Assembly: GCA_964016885.1 (NCBI GenBank)
Contig: OZ024740.1
Span: forward strand, 50,034,001-50,098,000
From: Eledone cirrhosa
Taxonomy: Eukaryota
Length of the DNA: 64,000 nt
Direction: 5' to 3'
In this document: one piece after another, positions 3,109 through 53,800 of the stretch
Layout: each line of letters opens with the position of its first letter
Position numbering within the stretch: position 1 is the first letter of the stretch
Position numbers and translations under genes: made by a program
The notes under the pieces: generated by a model
Database searches by the model: none
Told to the model about the DNA's origin: nothing
The model's input: only the letters and a program-made list of their open reading frames with translations

Positions 3109-3574
3109 GTGTGTTCAGAGACAATGAGAGACAGAAAAGAAGATAGATAAATAAATTCGCAGATAGATAGGTGTGCATGTACAGAGAGAGGGGGGATAGA
3201 ATGATTGAGTGAGTTGGTGAGGGAGGGAGCAAAACAAAAAAAATGAAAGAGAGATTAGATAATTTTATATGGATAATGTTAGAAAGATTGAATCTCTTAA
3301 ATTGTAAATGCTGAAAGTTAAGAATAGTATAGTTAAACAGAGAGATTTCATGGTGAAAATAAGTCTAATGATTGAGATAAAATCTAAAGATAGAAACATT
3401 TCACCATTTCCCTGAAGTCAGGTGTCATTAGTGCCAAAGACTGCAGGACTTATAGTTTCCGTGATATCTTCAAAAAGAAACAATATATCATTTCAACCTA
3501 TTCCTATACAATCCTCATTATCACCAGCACCACCAACAGCGCAGGGTCACCAACAACCGTATTCTCATTACGAA

Positions 3575-3582
3575 TCATCATT

Positions 3583-3625
<43 letters not shown>

Positions 3626-3682
3626 CCATCACCATCATCACCATCATCACCATCATCACCATCATCATCATCATCAACATCA
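3575..3682. repeat. (CAT)n/(CAC) microsatellite
   Basis: Direct inspection. Confidence 0.95.
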
Positions 3683-4530
3683 TTGCACCTTCCACTACTT
3701 GATAATCTATCCTATGAATCTATCTTTAACGGATTCTCTCCTAAGAGATTGATAACATCTATTGATTACGCACCATTAACTCTTGATATCATTGAGTCCA
3801 GTTGGCAAACGAAGATACGCAGATGACATTATATCTACTGAGAATGTCATTCTTATCATGATATATGCCTGTGTGTATGTGAGTGAGTGTGTATATATCT
3901 GTAAGGGGGAGGTCATCAATTTATTCATCTGCGGCTAATTGCTTGCAGTGAAAGGAAATTACATATTTGGAAATATTCTACTAGTTCCATATCCTCTTGT
4001 ATAGTGTTCATTGCTTAACCATGTAGAGCGTTTTGTTTAAATGTATTTGCGCTGTCCTTATGTATTTTCTTCTATTCTACATTTTGTCAGAAAAGAATAT
4101 TGTTTATTTAAGTTATTTTATCCTTTTATTGTTATTATTTTGCCGCGATCGGTCATTGTGTTGGCGCTACCTTGGGGCATCATCTCCAAATAAAAGAGTA
4201 TCTGTGTAGTCGTTTGACCTGTTAGAAATAACAACCAAATTTCCCTTAGATTATGTTGTGCCAATTCTAAAATGATCTTAAGGACAACTTTCCCCGGATA
4301 AACTTACAAATGATCAAAAGCATTCCGTTTTTTCATATATCAGACCCTAAATTCTCCAGTGTGGTGATTATTCTTTTTGATTAAATAGGTTGTATTTGCA
4401 GGCATTTGAATGTTATTTTAACATGTCGAACGAGAAGAGATTTCCTTAATAGTTTGGTGATGCTCTCCAATGTCTTGCAGTAGGATTGAACTCTAAACCT
4501 CGGAGTTTCAAAATGAGTAATAGGATATAC

Positions 4531-4567
<37 letters not shown>

Positions 4568-4569
4568 TC

Positions 4570-6099
4570 TTTCTTTATTTGCCACAGGGTGTACAAAAAT
4601 GGGACATTACAAGACGTGACGGCGGGGGTTTTACATAAAAATCATATAACTTTAAAATTAATAAATAACAATAAACTATATATAATAAAATAACAATTGA
4701 AATCCTCAATAGAGGGGGAACGTTACTGCAGGATCGTTTTACACCCCGTGGATAGAACAACCCTCAACACCAGGAGCACGTTTTGTAGGTGTTCCCATCT
4801 TCCCTCTGTTTATCTTCCTCAACCTACAGGTTTATATACAGAGAAGGCCCATTCACTCGGGCCATTTTCGCCACAGCGAATTTACTGGGGTGTAGCACCT
4901 CTCTCTCCACTCTCACCTTCCTTCTGAAGTGGTATTTAAAGAAGGGGATAAGTTGTTGTCCGGAGAGAAAGGTGTTTGCCCTCAGTCCTTTTAACCTCGT
5001 CCACCATATTACCTCTTTCGCCATAGCCACCAGACAGAGGGAAACCGCCTCTCCTTCATTCTTAAATGAAGGCGGCGGGGTGATCCTCACGATGGACTCG
5101 GCTGACAACTGGATGCGTCCCACGCGTGACAGTAGCTGTTCGACATAATTCCACAGGTCGGTCACCCCTGGGCACTGAACAACTGCGTGCAGAACGGTTT
5201 CGATGTCCTGCTCGCATCTTGGACAGGTCCACTTGGCAGGATCTCTGCTGGGGCGTCCGTGCCTGTAGATTTTGTCTCGAACTGATAGAGCTCCTCTGTA
5301 GCACTGCCAATCCAGAGACCTCTGGAAGTTATCCATAGGCCCTGGATGGAAAGTCCTCCCTAACAGACTGGTCAGTTCGACCTCCTCGATGCCTAGAGCT
5401 TCCACGAGAACGTCGTCGCACATATCCTCCACTAATCCCCTATAGAATGTCGAAGTGGAGTCTCCGCTGATTGCTGTTTCCGCTTGGTAGAGGGCTGTGA
5501 GCGCCTGAAGGCACTCGAAGTGCCAGGCCCCCATTTTCGTCTTCGCTTGACCCAGGATTGCAGCTCTGTTAGTGAGACGAGTTGTGGAAGAACTTGTCTC
5601 ACATACGACAGCCACACCGGTTCACGGTCAGGAATACCTGGAGATGGCGTAGCCTCAGCGTGTGTTTGCGCATTATCAACCACGGCTTGCCAAGCCCTCC
5701 GTTAGAAGGGTATTGACAGCAGATGGATCTCTTCACCAAAGGAGCCTGTTTCTTCCAGAGGAACTTGAAGAGTAGGTGTTCCATTTTGGTGAGGTATTCG
5801 CGGAGACAAGGCACGACTGTCAAGCGGTAGTAGATGACGGACGCTATGTAAGTGTTCGCCACCTCCGCTCAACCTTTCAGTTCTTGCCACCTCCGCCGTG
5901 ACCTCGTTTCAGTTCTTGGCCACCTGGAGGTCTGGACCAAACCAGACCCCCCCCCCCCCCCGCCGAGTAATTTCACCGGTCCTTCCGTCCTGCGTCCAAC
6001 GACACTGTCGGAAGGGGCACGGGTTTGCCTCTCCATGTGCCGAGTTGCAAACCGACAGACTTGTTTGGTTTTAGTCTTGCTCCTGTCAACGTTTCGTAG
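4570..6099 (-). mobile_element. 5'-truncated Tx1-like copy A
   Basis: ORF2 C-terminus (CPRCEQDIETVLHAVVQCP...VNGPSLYINL*) homologous to copy C. Ends AATAAAGAAAGA plus (TCTA)n at 4531-4567; its 5' end abuts GATA repeats. Confidence 0.88.
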
Positions 6100-6109
6100 A
6101 TAGATAGAT

Positions 6110-6502
6110 TTCTTTATTAGCCACAGGGGCACAAAAGAAGGGGACAAATACAAAGGGGGAAGTTTACATACAATAAAAACGTGTAAAATTTTATCACAGA
6201 TGGAATTTAAAAGTTAGTCGATTTTCCCCAATAGAGGGAGACAGTTTATATGGGTAACACAGACCCCCGAAAAAAATGTGCAACCCTCATCTCCAGGAGT
6301 ACGAAGAGCTTGTACTCCTTTCCTCTCCTCCTCCTTTTCCTCAACCTACAGGCTGATATAGAGAGAAGGCCCATTCACTCGGGCCATTCTCGCCACTTTC
6401 ACCCACCTTTCATAAAACTTGCTGGGGTACAGCACCTCTCTCTCCATCCTGATTCTTCTTCCAAAGTGGTATTTGAAAAAAAGAATCAGTTGTTGGCCGG
6501 AG

Positions 6503-6507
<5 letters not shown>
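6110..6507 (-). mobile_element. Short 5'-truncated Tx1-like copy B (3' end only)
   Basis: Encodes ...FLSGQQLILFFKYHF...VNGPSLYISL*, then 3'UTR and AATAAAGAAA(TCTA)n; bounded by (GATA)n on both sides. Confidence 0.85.
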
Positions 6508-6582
<75 letters not shown>

Positions 6583-6815
6583 TTCTTTATTTGCCACAAG
6601 GGCGCACAAGAAAAGGGAACAATACAAAGACATGCCGGGGATTTTACATACAGTCGTGTAAAAAATATAAAAACAAACAATTACAACAATCGAAATCCCC
6701 AATAGGAGGGAAACGCCACAAATGGGTTGTTTAATACCCCGTCGATAGAACAACCCTCAACTCCAGGAGCGTGTTGTGCAAGTGCTCCTTTCTTCCTTTT
6801 GCTCTCTTCTTCAAC

Positions 6816-9800
6816 CTACAGGCTTATAAACAGAGACGGCCCAATCACTCGGGCCATTTTTGCTTCATTCACCCACCTTTCAGTAAATTTACTGGGGTGC
6901 AGTGCCTCTCTCCCCACTCTGATTCTCCTTCTAAAGTGATACTTAAAGAAGGGAATCAATTGTTAGCCGGAGAGAAAGGCATCTGTCTTCAGTCCTCTCA
7001 ATCTCGTCCACTATATAGCTTCTTTCACCATAGCCACCGTACAGAGGAAAACCGCCTCTCTTTCGTTTTTGAAAGAGGCTGGTGGTTTGATCCTTACTAT
7101 GGACTCGGCAGTCAACTGGATTTGTCCCATACGCGACAGCAGTTGTTCTGCATAGTTCCACAGGTCGGTTACGCCCGGGCAGTGTACAATTGCGTGCAGG
7201 ACTGTTTCAATGTCCTGCGCGCATCTTGGATACGTCCTCTTGGAAGGATCTCTGCCGGGGCGTCCGTGCCTATAGATCTTGTCACGAACCGGTAGAGCTC
7301 CTCGATAGCACTGCTAGGCCAGGGACCTCTGGAAGTGGTCCATAGGTCCCAGGCGGAAAGTCCTACCGAACAGACTGGTGAGCTCATCGTCGTCGACGCC
7401 CAGAGTCTCTCCGAGCACATCGTCGCCCTTGTAACGTACAATCCCTCTATAGAATGTCGAAGTTGAGTCTCCACTGATTGCTGTGTCCACTTGCCAGAGG
7501 ACTGTAAGCGCCTGAGCGCATTCAATGTGCCAGGCGCCCATCGTTTTCGGTCTTTTCTTCACCCAGGACTGCAGCCCCGTCAGCGAGACGAGCTGTGCGA
7601 AAGCCTGTTTCACAAACGGTGCCCACACCGGTTGAGGGTCGGTGAGGAATACCTGGAGATGCCGCAGTTTCAGCGCATGTTTGCGCATCATCAGCCACGG
7701 CATTCCCAGCCCTCCGTTGGAAGGGTGCTGACAGCAGACGGATCTCCTCACCAGCGGAGCCTGCTTCTTCCACAGAAACTGGAAGAGCATGCGTTCCATC
7801 TTGGCGAGGTGTTCACGGAGACAAGGCACGACAGTCAAGCGGTAGTAGATGACGGGCGCTATGAAAGTGTTCGCCACCTCCGCTCGACCTTTCAAGGACA
7901 GTTTGCACTCTGCCCACTTCTGGGTGAGTGCAAACACCTTGGCCGTGACCTCGTTCCAGTTTTTCTCCACCTGGAGGTCTGGACCGAACCAGACCCCGAG
8001 CAATTTCACCGGTCCGTCCGTCCAGCGTCCAACGACGCTGTCGGACGTCATCGTTTTGCCTCTCCACGTACCGAGTTGCAAACTGACAGACTTGTCCGGG
8101 TTTCGTATTCTTTCAGTAAGTTGCCGATCAGTAAGTGCTCGACACCATTACCGTCACGTCGTCAGCATAAGCCGACGCCGCTTTGCGCAGTCCCGGTTCT
8201 AGAGGGATGGCCTGCAACAGCTCCAATTTCCGCAGTAGTGGCTCTAGAGTCAATACATACAGAATGGAGGATAGAGGGCACCCCTGTCGAATGGAACGTC
8301 TGATTGCGAACGGCTCCGATAAGTAGCCGTTCACCTTGACCCTCGAACAGATGCTGGTGTGCATCCTCTCTGTCGATCCAGCCTCTGAAAACGGGACCGA
8401 AACCGGCCGCCTTGAGAACCGCTTCCAAGTATCGATGGTCGACCCTATCGAATGCCTTAGACTGATCCAAATTGATCAGAGCCCCACTGAAGCCGGGTTT
8501 ACTACCCACCCTCTCTATGATGTATCGCATGAGGTGGAGGTTGTCGTGTATGGACCTGGTCGGGATTGCACATGTTTGCTCTTTCCCTACCAGGTTCTCG
8601 ACGACAAGCTCCAACCTCGTCGCTAGCACCTTGGCCAAAATCTTTAACTCAGTGTGGAGCAGAGTTATGGGCCTGAAGTTGTTAATTTCGTCCCCCTTGT
8701 TCTCGTCTTTCCTGATCAGCGTTACTACGCCCTTGCCTGCAGAACTAGGAATTCTCCCGTTCTGCTGCCAATTGCAGTAGACGGCTTCGAGGACGCCAGA
8801 GAACAAGTCCGGCATGCCTATGTAAAACTCATAGGGTAGACCATCTAGACCGAGTGACTTGCGTTTCCCGCAGCGGCCCAGAGCGTCCCGTATCTCAGTG
8901 TTAGTGATCGGTCTTTCGCAGAACTCGGCGTCTGTGTTCGAGAGACGCGGCAGGCCGTCGAGGTATGAACTAAAGTCCATTGCCCCGTTCGGCTCACCGT
9001 CGTTCTGCTCAAACAGTCGCGCAAAGTGCTGCTAAAAGGCCGCGCACATTTTCTTGGGGTCAAGTAGCACGCGTCCGTTTGGTCTTTCAAAGACCGAATC
9101 GTGGACTTGTTGCCACTTTTCGCCTCCGACACTCGGGCCCAGCTGACAGCTTTCGTTCCTTCGTTTCCTAGAGCACGTGTTTTGCTTCTGACCACGCAGC
9201 CTTCGTGTTTTGCATCGAAGAACTAGTCCAGTGCCGTTCTCGACGCTAACACTCTAGCCGCGTTTCCACTTCTAAGTGCCTCCTCTACCTTGGCTACTAG
9301 TTCTCTTTCTATTTTGTTTTTCTCTGCTAAACCCTATCGATTCTATTCTAATTGCTTTCTTGAGAGAGTACCACCATTTATTGTTGACGATGGCTCCCGT
9401 TAACTGTTGCTTGACTAGTCTACTTATCCGTTCACTGTAAGCTTTACGTGCCGGCAACGACACGTTCAGCTTCCAGTATCCGGGTCCTTGTCTATGTATT
9501 CTATCTCGGTTGACTAAGCAGACGCCTAATTTGTGATCTGAATAGGCAACCATGTGCATTTGTGGACAGCTTAACATCTCCTTGTCCCTTTCTCTAATGA
9601 AGAACCTATCTAAATATGATCTAGATGTCCCGCTGCGGTTTGCCCCCGTCCACTGTGGTGCAGTCGGGAAATCCAGTCGATACCTATCGGCCAGTTGGAA
9701 TTGGCCGATTAAAGTTTTGAGGCTGTTGTACCCCCACCCCCACCCCACCCCACCCTTCTACCGGGACATGCTCCCACATAGTCCTATCGTGCATCTAGGT

Positions 9801-10231
9801 ACCATTCCAGTCCCCCCACTAAAAGTAAGGAGTGAGACGTTCCCAGAAAAGACTCTAGACGCTTAAAGAAGTCTGGCCGTGATTGCGATTGCCCGGTCGG
9901 GGCATAAACGGCCACCAGTCTGAAGGCTCCACATCCAATACTGTTCACGTCTAGGACTACCAGTCTACCCTCCGGGTCCAAGTGTACTTGCTGTACTTCG
10001 GCGTCCAGGTTCTTCCGAAACATGATAGCCACTCCCCCCTGGCGGACAGAGAGATGCGTAGATCTCAAAGTCGTCGAAGATGAGGGTTAGTTGCTGCCTG
10101 TTGTGGATCCTGTACTCGGTGATGGCTATCACATCCATACCGTGTGACCTAAGGTCGTTTAAAAGTTGCCCCTGTTTCCAAGGCATCCCTAGGCCACGCA
10201 TATTCACGCTTCCAACTCGTAAACTCGCCAT
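6816..10231 (-). pseudogene. Tx1-like ORF2 (AP endonuclease, reverse transcriptase, C-terminal Cys/His domain), multiple frameshifts
   Basis: Motifs are spread over ORF fragments 9965-10231, 9784-10068, 9272-9748, 8162-8980, 8128-8364 and 7314-8081. Stop position is homologous to that of copy A. Confidence 0.88.
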
Positions 10232-10249
10232 GTTGGTGAAGAAGATTTG

Positions 10250-12166
10250 GAGAAAAAGGACGAAAGGTGCACTTACCTTTTCGTTTCCTGGAGATCGGGT
10301 TGTTCAATCTCCATTTGGGTGCTGGATGGGGTGTTGGGTGGGGTGAGAAACCTTTCAACAGGACGCGGTTGATGGGTTTGTGGCAGGGGTTGCCCACGTC
10401 CTGTGAAAATTTAGTTTTCAGGTCATTATAGGTTTCCATAGAAACCCTTATAAGTTTAAGGTGTGGAGACGATTCTGCCTTGACGAAAGTTTTGCCCTCC
10501 GTCTCCACCTTCGGGTTTTGGGAGATGACCTCCATCAAACTCTTGTTGTTTGTGTTGATGTATGCGTATTGTTGTTTGTGTTTTTGTTGTGTTGTTTTAG
10601 TTTGTTGTTTGTCCGGGAGTTTTTTTTTATGGTGGGTGCTTGTGTTTGGGGTGGTGTTGGTGTTGGTTTCGCTGGTAGGAGGATGTTTGACTGTGGTGTT
10701 GTTTGTGTTGTTGTTTGTGTCTGTGGTTGTGTGTTGGTGTTGGTGATTGGAGTTTTGGGGTTTTGTGGTGTCTCGTTTTTTGTTTTTTAGATTTCCGCGG
10801 CTCTCCCTCTTCTTCATTTAAAGAAGGAGAAGCAACTTCATCCGTCGATGAATAATCATCGTCAGGGGTGTGGGGTAGGGGTATATTGTGTGGTGGTGGT
10901 GTTTCGGTGTGTGTGTTTGTGGTAGTGTTTGATGGAGTGGGATGGGGTGGGGCTGTGTTCTTCAGGGGGTGTTGTCTCTGTTTTTTCTGTTGTTATTGGT
11001 TGAGTGTCTGTTTGTTTTGGTGTGGTTGCTCGTTTCGTCTGTCGTTGTACTTGTGGTGGTGGTGGTTGTTTTGGTGTTGGTGTTGGTAATAATGTATTTT
11101 TAATGATGTTGTTGTTGTTGTGGGTTTGTGGACAAGAGGCTTTTAGGTGTGCTATGCTACCACAGCGAAAGCAATGAAATGTTCGTCCTTCTACCGAAAT
11201 GTTTATTTTGTTGTTATTATCGATAACGACTCTTTCGGGTATTTTGGAGATTCTCTCCGGTTTCATTTGCAACAGAATCTCCAAATCTGTACCCGCCCAC
11301 CTTTGTCGAATATATTTTCGTATCGAAAGAATCATATCAGTTTCTGGCTCTACAAAGCTAGCTAAGATCCACCAGATGTTAATGTTTGGTGGTATATTTT
11401 TTTTTGTGTCCTTTTTCCCATGTATGTCGGGAAAAAATGAATACTTTTGACACTATTGGTGTCACAGAATGTTTTGGGGCGAGTGCCTCGCTTTTAAACA
11501 GTACGGAAACACTTCTGTACTGTTTTCCTCGTTGGAGAAATTCGATATTTGCTACAATTTCTTTCAGGGTATTTTCTATATGTCCTTGACTAACAAATAT
11601 CGGCTTTCTCGTTGTATTGGACACAGTCCTAAAGATCACTGTCTTTCGCACTGTGTCTTCTTTTATTTCACGGGGTGAGTTAATTCTAAACCCACCCTTG
11701 TCTTCGAAAGTTACAAACTTTCTCCCCTTGCTGGAGCATATCTCTTGCATTGGAGATGTCAAGATTTATAAAATCTTGTTTTTTGTTCACTGTTTCAGCG
11801 AAAGACATTTTTTTGTGTGGTGTTGCTGTTGCTGTTGTTGTTGTTATCGTTGTTAGCCTCGGTGTTGGAAATCTCAGTTCCTTGACGAGGTGAAACTTTA
11901 TGTGTAAATGTATCTGTGGAGTTGTTGATGTTGTTTTTTTCCTGTGTATGTATATTAATGGGTTTAATTCCTGTGTTTTCATTTTTTTTTTTCTGCTTCG
12001 ACGGTAGAAATTGTACAATCTTCAAGTGGCAATATTTTTTCCCTTTGTTGACAGTCGTATCTATGGCGACGTCCATAGCAGCAGAAGCAGATATAATGTT
12101 AAAATCTGCCTCTTTCTCTCTCTTTTCTCTGTCGACGTTCTCCAGCGTTCCCTTCGTGTTATTCAT
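10250..12166 (-). pseudogene. Tx1-like ORF1 (gag-like, zinc knuckle HCFRCGSIAHLKASC), disrupted
   Basis: Consecutive ORF fragments 11795-12166, 11379-11762, 10862-11335 and 10149-10817; C-X2-C-X4-H-X4-C motif; T/P/N-rich linker. Confidence 0.75.
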
Positions 12167-12377
12167 GTTTTATAGTTGGCAAAATTTGATATTTTTAAAG
12201 AATTTTTAAATTAAATTTTCGCCCCTAAAGGGGCGAAAAATGGGATTACCACCCAGCTGACAATTCAGCTTTGGGGTTAATCTACAAAATAATATGTTTT
12301 TTCAAACAATTTGTTCTGTTTTTCGTATATAAATTTATAAAAAATCTTACCAGCGATGTTCCACGCGTCAGGCAGAG

Positions 12378-12458
<81 letters not shown>

Positions 12459-12459
12459 T

Positions 12460-12785
12460 GTTTCTTTATTAGCCAGAAGGGGACAAATACAAAGAGGGAA
12501 GTTTACATACAATAAAAACGTGTAAAATGTTATCACAAATGCAATTTAAAAAGTTAGTCGATTTTCCCCAATAGGGGGAGACAGTTCATATGGGTAACAC
12601 ATACCCCCGAAAAAATGTGCAACCCTCAACTCCAGGAGTACGAAGAGTTTGTACTCCTTTCCTCTCCTCCTCCTTTTCCTCAACCTACAGGCATTCTCGC
12701 CACTTTCACCCACCTTTCATAAAACTTGCTGGGGTGCAGCACCTCTCTCTCCATCCTGATTCTTCTTCCAAAGTGGTATTTGAAA
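12460..12785 (-). mobile_element. Short 5'-truncated Tx1-like copy D (close sibling of copy B)
   Basis: Nearly identical to 6110-6478 apart from a ~30-nt internal deletion; flanked by (GATA)n at 12378-12457 and by AGATAGACAGATAGAC. Confidence 0.85.
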
Positions 12786-12898
12786 TAGATAGACAGATAG
12801 ACATCGGCTGGAAATAAACGTTATTTGTACCAGGTATGCAACAGAAACAAATCCGATGATCCCGTCTTCAGCAATGAGATAGTGATATTAATTATAAT

Positions 12899-13091
12899 AA
12901 TAATTGTTTCTACTATTGGCACAAGGCCAGCAATTACCCAGTACATTACTGGTACTTTATGTTATCGATCCCGTAAGGATGAAAGGCAAAGTTAACCTTG
13001 GCGGGATTTGAACTCAGAATGGCAAGGGCCGTAACTCTATGCGTCAAAGCATGACGTCCGATCCTCTACCGATACTGCCAATCCACCGCCC
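12899..13091 (-). mobile_element. tRNA-derived SINE, family 1
   Basis: Reverse complement of the 17793 and 50020 copies; A box TGGCAGTATCGG, B box GAGTTCAAATCC, core GCCTTTCATCCTTACGGGGTCGATAAA. Confidence 0.8.
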
Positions 13092-13699
13092 TAATTATAA
13101 TAATAATGGTTTGTAACTTAGGCGCAAGGATAAATAGATGAGGCGGGAGTTTCGGTTAAATCAATTCCAGTACTTGGCTGGCACTTTATATTATAGACGG
13201 GTATGAGAGCTCAAGATGTTGAACAATGTCGAAATACAATGAGAAACACCAAACAAGTTACAGTATAATATTAACTTCGAGTAAACGTGAGAACTCCAAT
13301 AACAATAGAGAGACATTAATAAATATATAATATATAGAACAGTACAGACTAAGAATAAGAACAAGCATAGGAGCAACTATATAGAGTGATGTGGTGTACC
13401 CCATATATAATTCCTGACTCCCCTGACACACAAAAGACGAATACTTTGTCACACATCTTATGATCAGCCTACATCTGCACAGTTAATCGTTTAGTCACAA
13501 TTTTTCCGCTTTCACACACTTTTCATAACATTTACTGAATGGTAGTAACCTATAACTCTACATTTACCTCTCTTTTCAATGGAAACTTAAAGTTGATGAA
13601 GGAAAAGTCCTGCATCAAAACTTTTAGCTCTGTCCGCCATGTAACGTCATTCGCCATAATCTGAAATGCACTGATCACTCAGACCACGATCACTCCTCT

Positions 13700-13815
13700 G
13701 TTTTTTATCCACCTGGAGGTCTGGTCAGTACCAGACTTCTAGCCCATTAACCGGACTCTCAGTCAAAGGACATAATGAACTTTCCTCTCCAGGTACTGAG
13801 TAGCCAGTCGACCCA
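13700..13815 (-). mobile_element. Tiny decayed fragment of the Tx1-like RT region
   Basis: ccacctggaggtctggtcagtaccagac matches copy C at ~7967-7994 (GPDLQVE region). Confidence 0.45.
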
Positions 13816-13858
13816 TGGGGATGATAGTTATGTACATAATCTATTGTAATCAATATTA

Positions 13859-13942
<84 letters not shown>

Positions 13943-14129
13943 AGGGCTTTCCTGATGATTTCCTTCGTATGAAAAAGTTGTAGTCCTGTAGAAGCCTTTT
14001 CTATATTAACTGTTGTTGAATACATTCTACTAATGTGTTGAGTACCTTACTTACTGTGGTTACCCCCGATTAAACCCGAGAGACACACTCACACACACAC
14101 ATACACACACACCACACACGCACACACAC

Positions 14130-23799: not shown

Positions 23800-25680
23800 G
23801 AACCGTGACGGGTCAGAGACGGCAGCAGTCTACCAGTTCCTAACTTAACGGCCTGTCGCGACTCTCCACGTTTGATGCGAAGCACTGACAAAAAGCCGAT
23901 ATACGTGAAGCCCTGGCCGACTATACGAGGTGCAAATCACTAGTAGACATGCCAGACCTGTTTTCCAATGCCCTCGAAGCTATCTAATGCAATTGGCAGC
24001 AGAATGGGAGAATTTCCAGTTTTGTGAGTCGAGGCGTAGTAATAGATAATTTCCGGTCAATAACTCTGCTTAACACTGAGTTGAAGATTTTACCAAGGTG
24101 CTAGCAATGAGGTTGGCGGTTGTCAAGAGTCTGATAGGGGAAGCACAGACGTGCGCAATTCCGATCAGGTCCATATACGACAACCTTCACCTAAAGCGAT
24201 ACATCATAGAGAGGACGGGGGAGTAAACCTGGTATCAGTGGGGCTCTGATCAATCTAGATCAATCGAAAGCTTTCAATCGGGTCGACCATCGATACCTAG
24301 ATGTTGTCCTCAAAGCGACAGACTTTGGTCTCGTCTTCTGAGGCTAGATCGCTGCAATGCACAGCAGCATCTACTCGGTGGTTAATGTCAACGGCCACCG
24401 ATCGGAACCGTTCCAGACCACGCACTTCATCTACCAAGGTCACCCTCCCTTCTGTACGTTCTGACTCTCAAGTCACTACTGCAGAAGCTGGAGCTGATGC
24501 AGGGCATCTCGCGCGAATCGTGACGTGGAAGGGCTGTGTTGGCATATGCAAACGTCATCACATTGGTGGTGTCGAACACTTCGGAAATATAGGTGGTCGA
24601 CAACTTAGAGGAATATGAAAAATTGATGGGAGCAAAGATCAAGCCGGAAAAGTCGGTGGGTTTGCAGTTCGGCACCTGGAGAGGCAAATTCCTGCCAGTT
24701 GATCGTGGTCTAGTTTTGTTCAAACCTTTTGGGACAAGGTAACATGGTGAACAGATGTGGTCACTGTTTGTGACACAGCTTGTCTCTTTGACTGAGCTAC
24801 AGTCATGAATCAAGCGAAGACCGCGACTGGTTGCTTGGCATCTGGAATGTGGTCAAGCGCTCACAGCTCTCTACCAGTTGGGCAAACCGGTCATTGGAAA
24901 TCCCACTCTAGTATTATCTATTGGACTAATGGTGTGAAAATGTAACGAAATTCTCCGAGAAACTCGGGGTGTCGACGACATCGAACTACCCAGTCTGTTG
25001 CGGAGAACTTTCGAGCCGGGGACTATGGAAATTTTCCAGAAGTACCTGTCTTGACAGTGTTACTGGGGGGAAGGGGCACTGCCGATTCGGGACAAATTCT
25101 ACAGGCAAGAAGTTGCTATCAGACAAAACTGTCCGAGGTACGCAGATCGATGAAACCGTTCTGCATGCACTCATCCAGTGTCCAAGCATTGCTGACGTGT
25201 GGAGTTTTATCGAACAGCTATTATTGCGTGTTGGGCGGATCCGGCTATCCGGCTGTCTTTTGGGCGGAAATGGATGACTGTAGTGAAAGACCTTGAGTGG
25301 TGAACGCAGCTGAAAGGGATGAAAACAGACATTTCCCTATTCAGTTCAGCTCTCCTTTTCAAGTTCCACCTGAAAAGGAAGGTGAGGGTGAAGAGCGAAG
25401 TGCTGCCCCCAGGTGGGTGAATGTAGCGAGGATGGCCTAAGTGAATGGGTCTACTCTGACCATGTGTCGGTAGGCTGGAGAGTTTAGAAAAGAGAGGGGT
25501 ACCTTCCAATGATGCTCTTGATCTGTGAGGTTCCTAAATTACCTCTGTGTGTGGTACTCTCCGCTATTGTGGAATTTTATTGTTAGTAATTTATTGTTAA
25601 TTGTTATCTTTTTTAGACGTTTTATGTAAATCGTCCCTGTCCCTGTTTTTGTTGTCTATTATATTTCGGCCTTTGAGGCA
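23800..25680 (+). mobile_element. Old, internally deleted Tx1-like copy related to copies A-D
   Basis: Remnants of INLDQSKAFNRVDHRYL (~24248-24300), KSVGLQFGTWRGK (~24650-24690), ETVLHALIQCP (~25150) and a 3'UTR resembling copy C. Confidence 0.75.
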
Positions 25681-26984
25681 GTATTAGTAGAACATCGAAC
25701 ATGTTCTATTGTTTGTAGTTGGACCGCATAGAGGCATCTCTATAAAACTTTCAACTTGTTTTTGTCTGGGTGAGAGGAAGCGATTAGGCATAAAATAATT
25801 GTTGTTTTCTTGAAAAATATATACATTCCAGGTCAGAGACTAGGCCGTATTAGCCACTTGGTATTTTTTTCAGATATTTCGGGCCTCCTTTTGGCCTTTT
25901 GGCACTTTAACCTTTCAACCCTCTAGAGCTGACAGGCTTGACGGAGCCCCTAAGAGTCAAATTTATGAATGATGGAAGTTTGATTATAGAGTTAATAAAA
26001 ATTGTTTTACTATTTGATATTGTGTTGAGATGAAAAGTTCTTTTTATTGAATTTGATACTCGAAGCTACATTAAAAAGGACGATTTGAATAAATTACCAT
26101 TAATAAGAAACACATCAAAACACACTGTCTGTAGTGTTTTTATTTTATTTTTGCTAACTGTTGATGTACTTAGTCATTTCCCTGTATTTGTTATGTTTCT
26201 TATGAGAGGTGAAATGTTTTAATATATTCAGTGTCCGTTTCTCAGCGTATTTCCACACTTATTAAAATGATCTCATTTTGGCGTCAAAATTATTATTATT
26301 CCTTTCGTGCCGGTCGGCGTCGAGACTTCCGGTTCGGGTCACCGAACTGCTAATTTCCTCTGCAAAATCAGGAGGAATGCATATCATCAGAGGAAGGAGC
26401 CCCGCAATTTGGGAAAGTGATGCAGTGAGCGTCGCTGGCTATTCTACGCAGCGGTGCTTTCTCTATCTTCTATTCATTGCGCTCCTAAGATCTACTGCCC
26501 AGTCAACATTGAAGAGTTTTCTCGTATCTTTCCCTCATTATTTCATGTTATCCTTACGGGGTCGATAAAACACCTACACTACAGGTGAAAACATTCCTCG
26601 TAATTAACCCACCAATCAAAACAACTTTTACTGACCAGCATATGAACATTAGACTTTTTCCTACGCCATGTATATTCATTCCGTCATTACTACCACAGAG
26701 GTCCGACGAGCCATTGATTACAGAGTCGGGCTAGATTGATACAGATCGAACTTTGAGCTGATCAATAGCGAAACGCGTGTCACCAACCAATAAACGTAAA
26801 CATAATGAAGGAGTAACCATTCGTCCTTGTTTTATTTTATTATATATATATATAGTCCAGTGGCGGAATATTTCCAAGTATTGTAAAAATGTCTTTCTTT
26901 ATATTTCAGTGTGGAAACCTTACAGATTCAGCTGTATTTTCTTTCTTGATGCAACAGTAAGCTTTCACATGCGACGAACACATC

Positions 26985-52802: not shown

Positions 52803-53024
52803 TTAAGAAAGTACATTAGCTGACCGTTCTGTACACTAAATACACACGTGGATCGTTGGCCTCGTAAAGATATTGTGCCGTAAATTGTGCAATTCGACAT
52901 CAACGTGAACATTTGACAAAAAAAAATGGTTACATAACAGATTTTATCTCTACGTGAACAGAAAAACTGATCAATCTGATTAGTTTCTTAGTTTTCAAAT
53001 GTAAATAATGAACAGGGTAGGTGA

Positions 53025-53800
53025 CAGTACGTACCCTTGGTGGATTGCGACTCCCACATTGAATGGTTTCGATTTAGTACCATTTATCCGAACACAAATA
53101 CTCGGACATTCCTATAAACACATCAGGGCATCAAGAAGCTGACCATTGATCCCATACTCCTGCAGAACCTTCCACAGTAGGTCCCGAGGAATGCGGTCAT
53201 ATGCCTTTTCAAGGTCTACAAAACCAGAATATACCTCTTGGCAATACTCCCACGATTTCTCGAATATCTGCCGCAGTGTAAATATTTAGTCGGCAGTGCT
53301 GCATTCGGGGCGAAAACCGCACTGTTCATCAGCTAGCTTGAACTCGACAATCTCGCTGCATCTCTGTGCCAGACACTTAGCATTGACTTTACCTGAGATG
53401 CTTAACAAGATCTCTATAATTGGAATAATTTCCCTTTTTGAAAATTGGGAGTATCACTCCTGATTGCCTTAGATACCTGTCCAAAGATCCAAACCACCTG
53501 ACACACACGAGTCAGTCAGAGAATACCTTTTATATTTAAGGCTTTTAACATCTTGGGCAGGATTTCATCTTCCTCAGCGGCCTTGCCACATTTGAGCGCT
53601 TTAACTGCTCGTGACCTCAGCCTCAGAGAGATTAGTCACTCCTTTCCATGTCACGTGGTCAGTGCCAACATGTGCATTGAAGTCTCCCACATATGACTGA
53701 GTCTTAACGACATCTAACACTGCAGCGACTTCATCAAGAAAGGATCTGTATTTGGACTCCTTGTTTGGTGCATAAACTTTCACCACCCACAGAGGCATGA
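53025..53800 (-). mobile_element. Decayed RTE-clade LINE (APE and RT fragments)
   Basis: VKVYAPN...VGDFNAHVG (APE) and GFVDLEKAYDRIPRDLLWKVLQEYGI (RT). Confidence 0.75.

Follow-up and report, generated by a model that had tools for sequence, protein, structure and literature searches.

Why do four retrotransposon copies stand head-to-tail within a single microsatellite of the curled octopus Eledone cirrhosa, all in one orientation? The stretch analysed (contig OZ024740.1, positions 50,034,001 to 50,098,000; hereafter, the window) comprises 64,000 nt of a 3.0-Gb assembly, and contains four same-strand retrotransposon copies of the type that lacks long terminal repeats (non-LTR), all on the minus strand, with (GATA)n between them. 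The repeat could be the target into which such elements insert, a tail that they bring with them, or a component of an array multiplied as a whole. On the evidence below, there is good reason to believe that the array records four separate insertions of elements that are likely of the Tx1 clade, that insertion is strand-specific at Y^TATCT (Y, pyrimidine; ^, point of insertion) and mostly in (TATC)n/(GATA)n with duplications of approximately 8–23 bases, and that the site is likely chosen by the APE endonuclease, which would nick the GATA strand, with RNA pairing probably helping.

The stacked layout described in the initial annotation was confirmed, on one strand throughout, and its parts map as follows (ORF, open reading frame; UTR, untranslated region).

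4532..4567, plus strand: (GATA)9, the target tract adjoining the 3′ end of copy A
4568..6098, minus strand: copy A, 5′-truncated, with ORF2 from about residue 709 to its end and the 3′ UTR; terminus AATAAAGAA-AGA
6099..6106, plus strand: (GATA)2, separating A from B
6107..6508, minus strand: copy B, 5′-truncated, about 400 bp
6508..6579, plus strand: (GATA)18, separating B from C
6580..12378, minus strand: copy C, full length (5.8 kb), with broken ORFs
10276..12169, minus strand: ORF1 region of copy C, with a CX2CX4HX4C zinc knuckle and a T/N/Q-rich stretch, frameshifted; located by tblastn with the intact ORF1 of locus L133
6819..10231, minus strand: ORF2 region of copy C, with APE endonuclease, reverse transcriptase (RT), and C-terminal zinc finger, carrying frameshifts and stops; domains placed via the intact ORF2 of locus L138
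12379..12458, plus strand: (GATA)20, separating C from D
12459..12785, minus strand: copy D, 5′-truncated, 327 bp, a member of B's family that carries small deletions
12786..12802, plus strand: degenerate GATA tract ATAGATAGACAGATAGAC at the 5′ junction of copy D

All four 3′ ends consist of AATAAAGAA followed by AGA, ATC, ATC, and ACA in A, B, C, and D, respectively, and then by TATCT with no poly(A), just as had been claimed. The 5′ ends likewise abut repeats, with the refinement that the A/B spacer amounts to two units and that the 5′ junction of copy A shows a 2-base microhomology. Identities of 77% between A and C, 72% between B and C, and 87% between B and D bear out the proposed division into three groups (A, B/D, and C), and the truncation points of A, B, and D all differ. 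L122 contains a full-length relative with 96% identity to copy B. Copy C, which is 91%–93% identical to other full-length copies, is indeed full length as proposed, with the refinement that frameshifts and stops interrupt both its ORF1 and ORF2. No further (GATA)3+ run occurs anywhere else in the window, and TATC-phase runs of 8 or more bases were present in 4 of the 2,404 29-base segments into which its remainder was divided.

The same 3′ junction recurs across the genome. In genome-wide pattern counts, TATCT comes after 13,032 element ends from across the families, and AGATA after none. The 22-base C-type 3′ end has 5,460 exact matches; a near-identical C-type pattern is followed by TATCTATCT in 2,967 matches, out of about 5,460 C-type ends, with 19% expected from background CTATCT sites, and 61 C-type ends are followed by eight bases of ATT repeat. 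The family of copy A has 875 near-exact 3′ ends, and TATCT followed 24 of 30. Junctions were then read individually at the first 100 listed places of the 22-base C-type end, all on contig 1 and with the window's own copy left out; both ends were resolved in 93 of 99, with L077, L130, and L147 dropped as another family or too short and L132, L160, and L163 for an unresolved 5′ end. Element boundaries were drawn from single-element references, replacing all-against-all chaining, which ran through arrays. The three bases that follow AATAAAGAA are family-typical (ATC 36, ATA 25, ATT 20, ACA 5, ATG 5, and AGA 2 of 93), and beyond them comes TAT in 77/93 and TATCT in 71/93. TCTCT comes next at only two ends, despite the abundance of (TC)n, and poly(A) was found at none of the 93.

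At the 5′ junction, a TATC-phase run of 8 or more bases adjoins 17 of the 18 full-length copies; among truncated copies the figure is 41 of 75. The background, measured in 20 random 10-kb genomic stretches, is 39 of 13,760 windows (0.28%), and the enrichment in truncated copies is thus around 190-fold; among truncated copies without an upstream neighbour, 23 of 55 have an 8-base TATC run. With both flanks tabulated, the combination that would mark a tail, namely repeat at the 3′ end only with random 5′ flanks, did not appear. PMC4494074 treats a family as target-specific when one sequence type makes up >20% of its flanks; the corresponding shares here are 71/93 for TATCT in 3′ flanks and 41/75 for the 8+ run in truncated 5′ flanks.

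Target-site duplications locate the insertion point. Pooling loci L001–L220 gave 207 distinct ends, 160 of them with both ends resolved, and a duplication was regarded as informative if it spanned 8 or more bases and held at least three non-repeat bases. Such duplications occur in 23 of the 160 copies (100 shuffles: mean 1.83, maximum 5), have lengths of 8–33 bases with a median of 14, and start exactly three bases past AATAAAGAA in 18 of the 23. At the non-repeat sites L069, L083, L099, L118, and L153, zero repeat units are added between element end and duplication; the duplications begin at the element end, and hence there is no templated tail. Moreover, L061 and L137, which belong to different families, interrupt the identical base in two copies of an unrelated long interspersed nuclear element (LINE), with flanks 87% and 85% alike. 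The host LINE supplies TATCTGT itself, and the shared site thereby stands in for an empty site. The GATA repeat is the target, not the tail. Immediately before the duplication stands a C in 21 of 23 cases; where no TATC precedes (11 sites), nine have C there and two T (background C 15%, P 1.6e-6). C also precedes the duplication in 6/6 cases in which the element itself ends in a base other than C; RNA pairing cannot explain this, which points to a choice made by the endonuclease.

By analogy with target-primed reverse transcription, the APE endonuclease would nick at 5′-AGATA^G-3′ and reverse transcription would start from that nick, with a second nick some 8–23 bases further on. An AATAAA lies six bases from the element end. 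Polyadenylation involves cleavage of the transcript downstream of AATAAA, and cleavage would therefore fall in the downstream repeat. The resulting read-through (UAUC)n RNA end may pair with the nicked strand, giving a precise end without poly(A). Each insertion would duplicate TATC units on both sides and the tract would stay a target, so that different families could stack head-to-tail without interrupting each other. The earlier proposal that insertions leave fresh target and arrays grow is in keeping with how common same-strand arrays are: 45 of 93 copies have a same-strand family neighbour within 200 bases, as against 2 of 93 with a downstream opposite-strand neighbour. Among the systems that this scheme draws on, the Tx1L endonuclease nicks its own target specifically (PMC1950540), R2Ol is helped by read-through pairing (PMC6530143), and target choice by L1 combines nicking with pairing (PMC4014453).

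Several observations weigh against this account. AAT takes the place of TAT after eight of 93 ends, and a single minisatellite tract accounts for four of these eight. The four (L114–L117, G000:C1:35249489-35265717) are young copies, 98%–99% alike to other young copies, spaced in a minisatellite of ~60 bases and each followed by AATATTAACC instead of TATCT; they share one tract and hence are not independent, and arose either by several insertions into a variant site or by being duplicated together with the minisatellite. CTATCT units lie beyond the duplication in L115 and L117, and the 5′ TATC of full-length copies may be partly RNA-derived. Of the lone truncated copies, 32/55 lack an 8-base run and 25 lack even 6 bases. 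Only 23 of 160 copies are informative, most of the copies lying in pure repeat, where duplications are unreadable, and the 33-base duplication at L028 may be a local tandem duplication. Lastly, no empty allele was found among contigs of four public runs placed on positions 3500–14000, none of which bridges the array. The best-matching run carries the unique flanks without a difference and is possibly the source, so that it gives no independent evidence; pieces of the element at 90% or more are present in the runs labelled organisms B and C, and no RNA dataset is among the public runs listed as matches. The TATC preference is strong but not strict, in that single-unit and imperfect sites are used. 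The (TCTA)n specificity first put forward thus stands as a preference, centred on a short core, Y^TATCT, in which Y is mostly C.

The alternative that survives best holds that the endonuclease reads only Y^TAT, that the apparent specificity derives mostly from (UAUC)n RNA–DNA pairing, with slippage afterwards extending duplicated TATC units into arrays, and that many GATA arrays are products rather than targets; we regard it as a serious possibility, if on balance an improbable one. It would account for the single-unit or imperfect sites at L069, L083, L099, L123, and L153, for a 3′ tract longer than the 5′ tract in some copies (L148, L129), and for the existence of (ATT)n sister families with a nearly identical endonuclease loop. 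It also fits the (GATA)4+ arrays sampled, 24 of 40 of which touch an element. These were taken in order from the first pattern matches, with near neighbours skipped, and the pattern selects by one end, such that the share of 24/40 may be biased; a reversed-pattern count was rejected as a chance control, as it counts the other end of the very same arrays. The remaining 16 arrays show no detected element, however, and free targets therefore exist. Furthermore, periodicity is also seen upstream of the nick, at positions beyond the reach of RNA pairing (A at −3 in 19/23 and A at −7 in 20/23), and −1 is C, although partly owing to neighbours' tracts. If ~60% of GATA arrays do adjoin a multicopy element, GATA microsatellite markers in this genome would often have repetitive flanks.

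Far less credible is random insertion with the repeat templated as a tail at the 3′ end, the pattern of L2, CR1, or RTE LINEs. The lack of poly(A), the TATCT after 71/93 ends, and the share of 5′ junctions without repeat would all suit such a tail, but the duplications have already largely refuted it: no extra unit precedes them at the five non-repeat sites listed above, upstream repeat in 23/55 lone truncated copies stands against 0.28% in the background, and the host-LINE site common to L061 and L137 carries the motif. Least plausible of all, and barely worth entertaining, is that the array arose by local tandem duplication or recombination or is an assembly artefact, for although no public contig bridges it, A, B, and C are only 72%–77% alike and so not locally duplicated, their truncation points differ, and mixed-family arrays recur (45/93 sampled copies).

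What, then, are the elements that target TATC? The intact ORF2 of L138 encodes 1,148 amino acids with an APE endonuclease, an RT, and a C-terminal zinc finger. Pfam recognises Exo_endo_phos (E 3e-14), RVT_1 (E 1e-26), and zf-RVT (E 8e-5, under its curated cut-off) and gives no RNase H hit in this protein. The endonuclease motifs NVRG, ITES, YAP, GDWN, SYLD, and SDH are all found; its best sequence match in the PDB is 2V0R, an L1 endonuclease carrying the Tx1L loop (E 4e-6), with plain L1 endonuclease barely lower (E 2e-5), and a single-sequence structure model of it was poor (pLDDT, predicted local distance difference test, 39). The intact ORF1 of L133 contains a CX2CX4HX4C knuckle; Pfam returned no hit on the whole of this ORF1, and zf-CCHC on a piece of the copy C ORF1 reached only E 0.074. 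A CCHC zinc knuckle in ORF1 is a feature of the Tx1 clade. At least six families, 75%–83% alike in DNA, are present in the fetched loci. Seven full-length copies are mutually 96%–99% alike and mark one subfamily as young.

A homologue search gave 79 matches, none labelled Tx1, and ten clusters bore no names; scans of metagenomes (with P0007) and viruses found nothing. Placement was by a quick RT tree of 119 segments in which unnamed elements, defined by their flanks, served as proxies for named Tx1 families. The TATC families form one clade (SH-aLRT, Shimodaira–Hasegawa-like approximate likelihood ratio test, 100), whose sister is a set of unnamed proteins, P0002–P0013 (SH-aLRT 100); relatives P0002–P0028 are ~40% identical. 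The clade lies within an unresolved 64-row branch (SH-aLRT 90) alongside unnamed elements flanked by U2, U1, and 5S, whereas (TC)n-flanked proxies (L231, L237, and L238) occupy a separate branch, deep support being modest. Two U2-flanked elements meet U2 at GTATCTGTT, matching the expectation for Keno, downstream of which U2 begins at nucleotide 39 (PMC4640811 section 6). This junction and the shared branch together support Tx1 by proxy, and the lineage therefore likely belongs to the Tx1 clade as judged from proxy sequences. The initial designation as Tx1-like accordingly gains from the APE, RT, zinc finger, and ORF1 knuckle, while the placement itself among Tx1 elements is by proxy sequences only.

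Metagenome elements L223, L225, L226, L228, and L229 are joined to U2 small nuclear RNA (snRNA), and the GTATCTGTT after their 3′ junction contains a TATCT core, which may be chance. Metagenome relatives L247, L251, L254, L273, L295, L235, and L270 adjoin U1 snRNA, tRNA, or 5S rRNA and may be further target-specific families; Rfam hits lie behind the assignments of L247, L254, L235, and L270, while L251, L273, and L295 were assigned by eye.

Known Tx1 elements offer the closest comparisons. Microsatellite targets reported for the clade are (TC)n for Kibi, (TTC)n for Koshi, and (TTCC)n and (TTTC)n for crocodilian families (PMC4494074, PMC3812793, in the parts available), and TATC is not among them. 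They resemble the lineage described here in being APE-type non-LTR elements, placed in the Tx1 clade, with microsatellites as insertion sites; (TATC)n, however, is not pyrimidine-only, and the lineage sits apart from the (TC)n-flanked proxies in the quick tree. Membership of Kibi/Koshi was rejected given TCTCT after only 2/93 ends and the separate branch of the unnamed (TC)n proxies (with its modest deep support), as was membership of the poly(A)-tailed L1 clade, whose target is TT/AAAA, given 0/93 ends with poly(A). Keno, which targets U2 snRNA genes (PMC4494074, PMC4640811), resembles the lineage in its precise 3′ junction and, through its U2-flanked proxies, in RT branch (SH-aLRT 90), but the U2 proxies L223 and L225 end A-rich and the target is a gene, in contrast to a microsatellite target and no poly(A) here. 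Tx1L of Xenopus (PMC1950540) shares an APE endonuclease at the start of ORF2 but targets a DNA transposon, and the loop here has nine residues, as in L1, rather than eleven.

Further afield, microsatellite targets are on record for Waldo (ACAY)n, Mino (AC)n, Dong (TAA)n, and Togen (TG)n (PMC3812793, PMC4640811). These too are non-LTR elements with microsatellite targets, and the Waldo unit also has four bases. Their clades are nevertheless different (R1, R4, and NeSL-related), as are their repeat units. SaTar Mutator-like element (MULE) arrays of guayule and rice (PMC5907723) are similarly linear, non-nested, and multi-family, and arise via microsatellite targeting, but consist of nonautonomous DNA transposons instead of retrotransposons. 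The mechanism of microsatellite targeting is described as not well understood in PMC3812793; with thousands of copies here, the nick site (Y^TATCT) can be placed at single-base resolution, the element end being fixed and poly(A) absent. In Octopus vulgaris, 80 L1-Tx1 families, 13 of them recently active, are reported in the sections available of PMC13282606, which carry no target information; nor do those of PMC8967140, PMC9115989, PMC10294476, and PMC3747384. In a literature search largely confined to open-access papers, no Tx1 element targeting GATA or TATC was found; further targets are listed in the tree of PMC4494074. Repbase or Dfam, which lay outside that search, may well already have entries for these families, perhaps with the target noted.

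The TATC lineage has close relatives with a different repeat. L077 and L130 represent related families whose ORF2 is 52%–67% identical to that of the TATC families and whose ends are followed by (ATT)n; one ATT family has 1,849 exact ends. At the first 30 places of this family, 22 begin with ATCATTATT or ACCATTATT. For 16 of them a junction falls within the locus, although several are internal deletions; an ATT run of 8 or more bases is present at 4 of the 16, compared with 21/2,404 in the background and 0/130 in TATC families, and a TATC run at none. One duplication in the ATT family passed the automatic test and two more were recognised by eye, and in several long copies an ATT tract adjoins either end. 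ATT targeting is therefore less well supported than TATC targeting. The ATT families (L077, L300–L404) are also often seen within (ATT)n, frequently the ATT tail of a common short interspersed nuclear element (SINE), and form arrays of their own.

In a 24-row RT tree, nine TATC copies form one clade (100/99), joined to one ATT family (98/98) with the other ATT family outside; in a 20-row endonuclease tree, the TATC and ATT groups are each clades with weak support (80/91 and 83/75). The RT topology, with the TATC clade nested among ATT sister families, suggests a single switch of target. Thirteen endonuclease columns consistently differ between the two groups, including Ser196 in TATC families versus Ile in ATT families, which aligns to Pro197 of L1 in the tip of the DNA-probing hairpin loop. 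Nicking profiles are influenced by this loop, but an H198A change at its tip left specificity unchanged (PMC1950540), and one residue is thus unlikely to be the whole answer. We would suggest only tentatively, and with more doubt than conviction, an undescribed Tx1 lineage that made one (ATT)n-to-(TATC)n switch via a few endonuclease changes including Ile to Ser, and that afterwards diversified into at least six coexisting families, now occupying most GATA microsatellites of the genome. If so, the sister lineages (60%–67% identical in ORF2) would be a natural pair for learning how APE endonucleases change specificity; because related families in one genome use two repeats, the determinants are testable with few candidate residues.

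Elsewhere in the window, an older, decayed relative missed by the initial annotation lies at ~23835-25690 on the plus strand, not in a GATA tract; it shows 37%–58% amino acid identity to ORF2, and its 3′ UTR resembles, by eye, that of the ATT-type families. A 52-base fragment at 13702-13754 resembles the elements' RT region (79% alike), and a distant RT fragment (30% identity) lies at 53007-53390 on the minus strand. Positions 28981-49391 are occupied by a 20-kb satellite with a 24-base unit, in ~862 copies with 90% matches.

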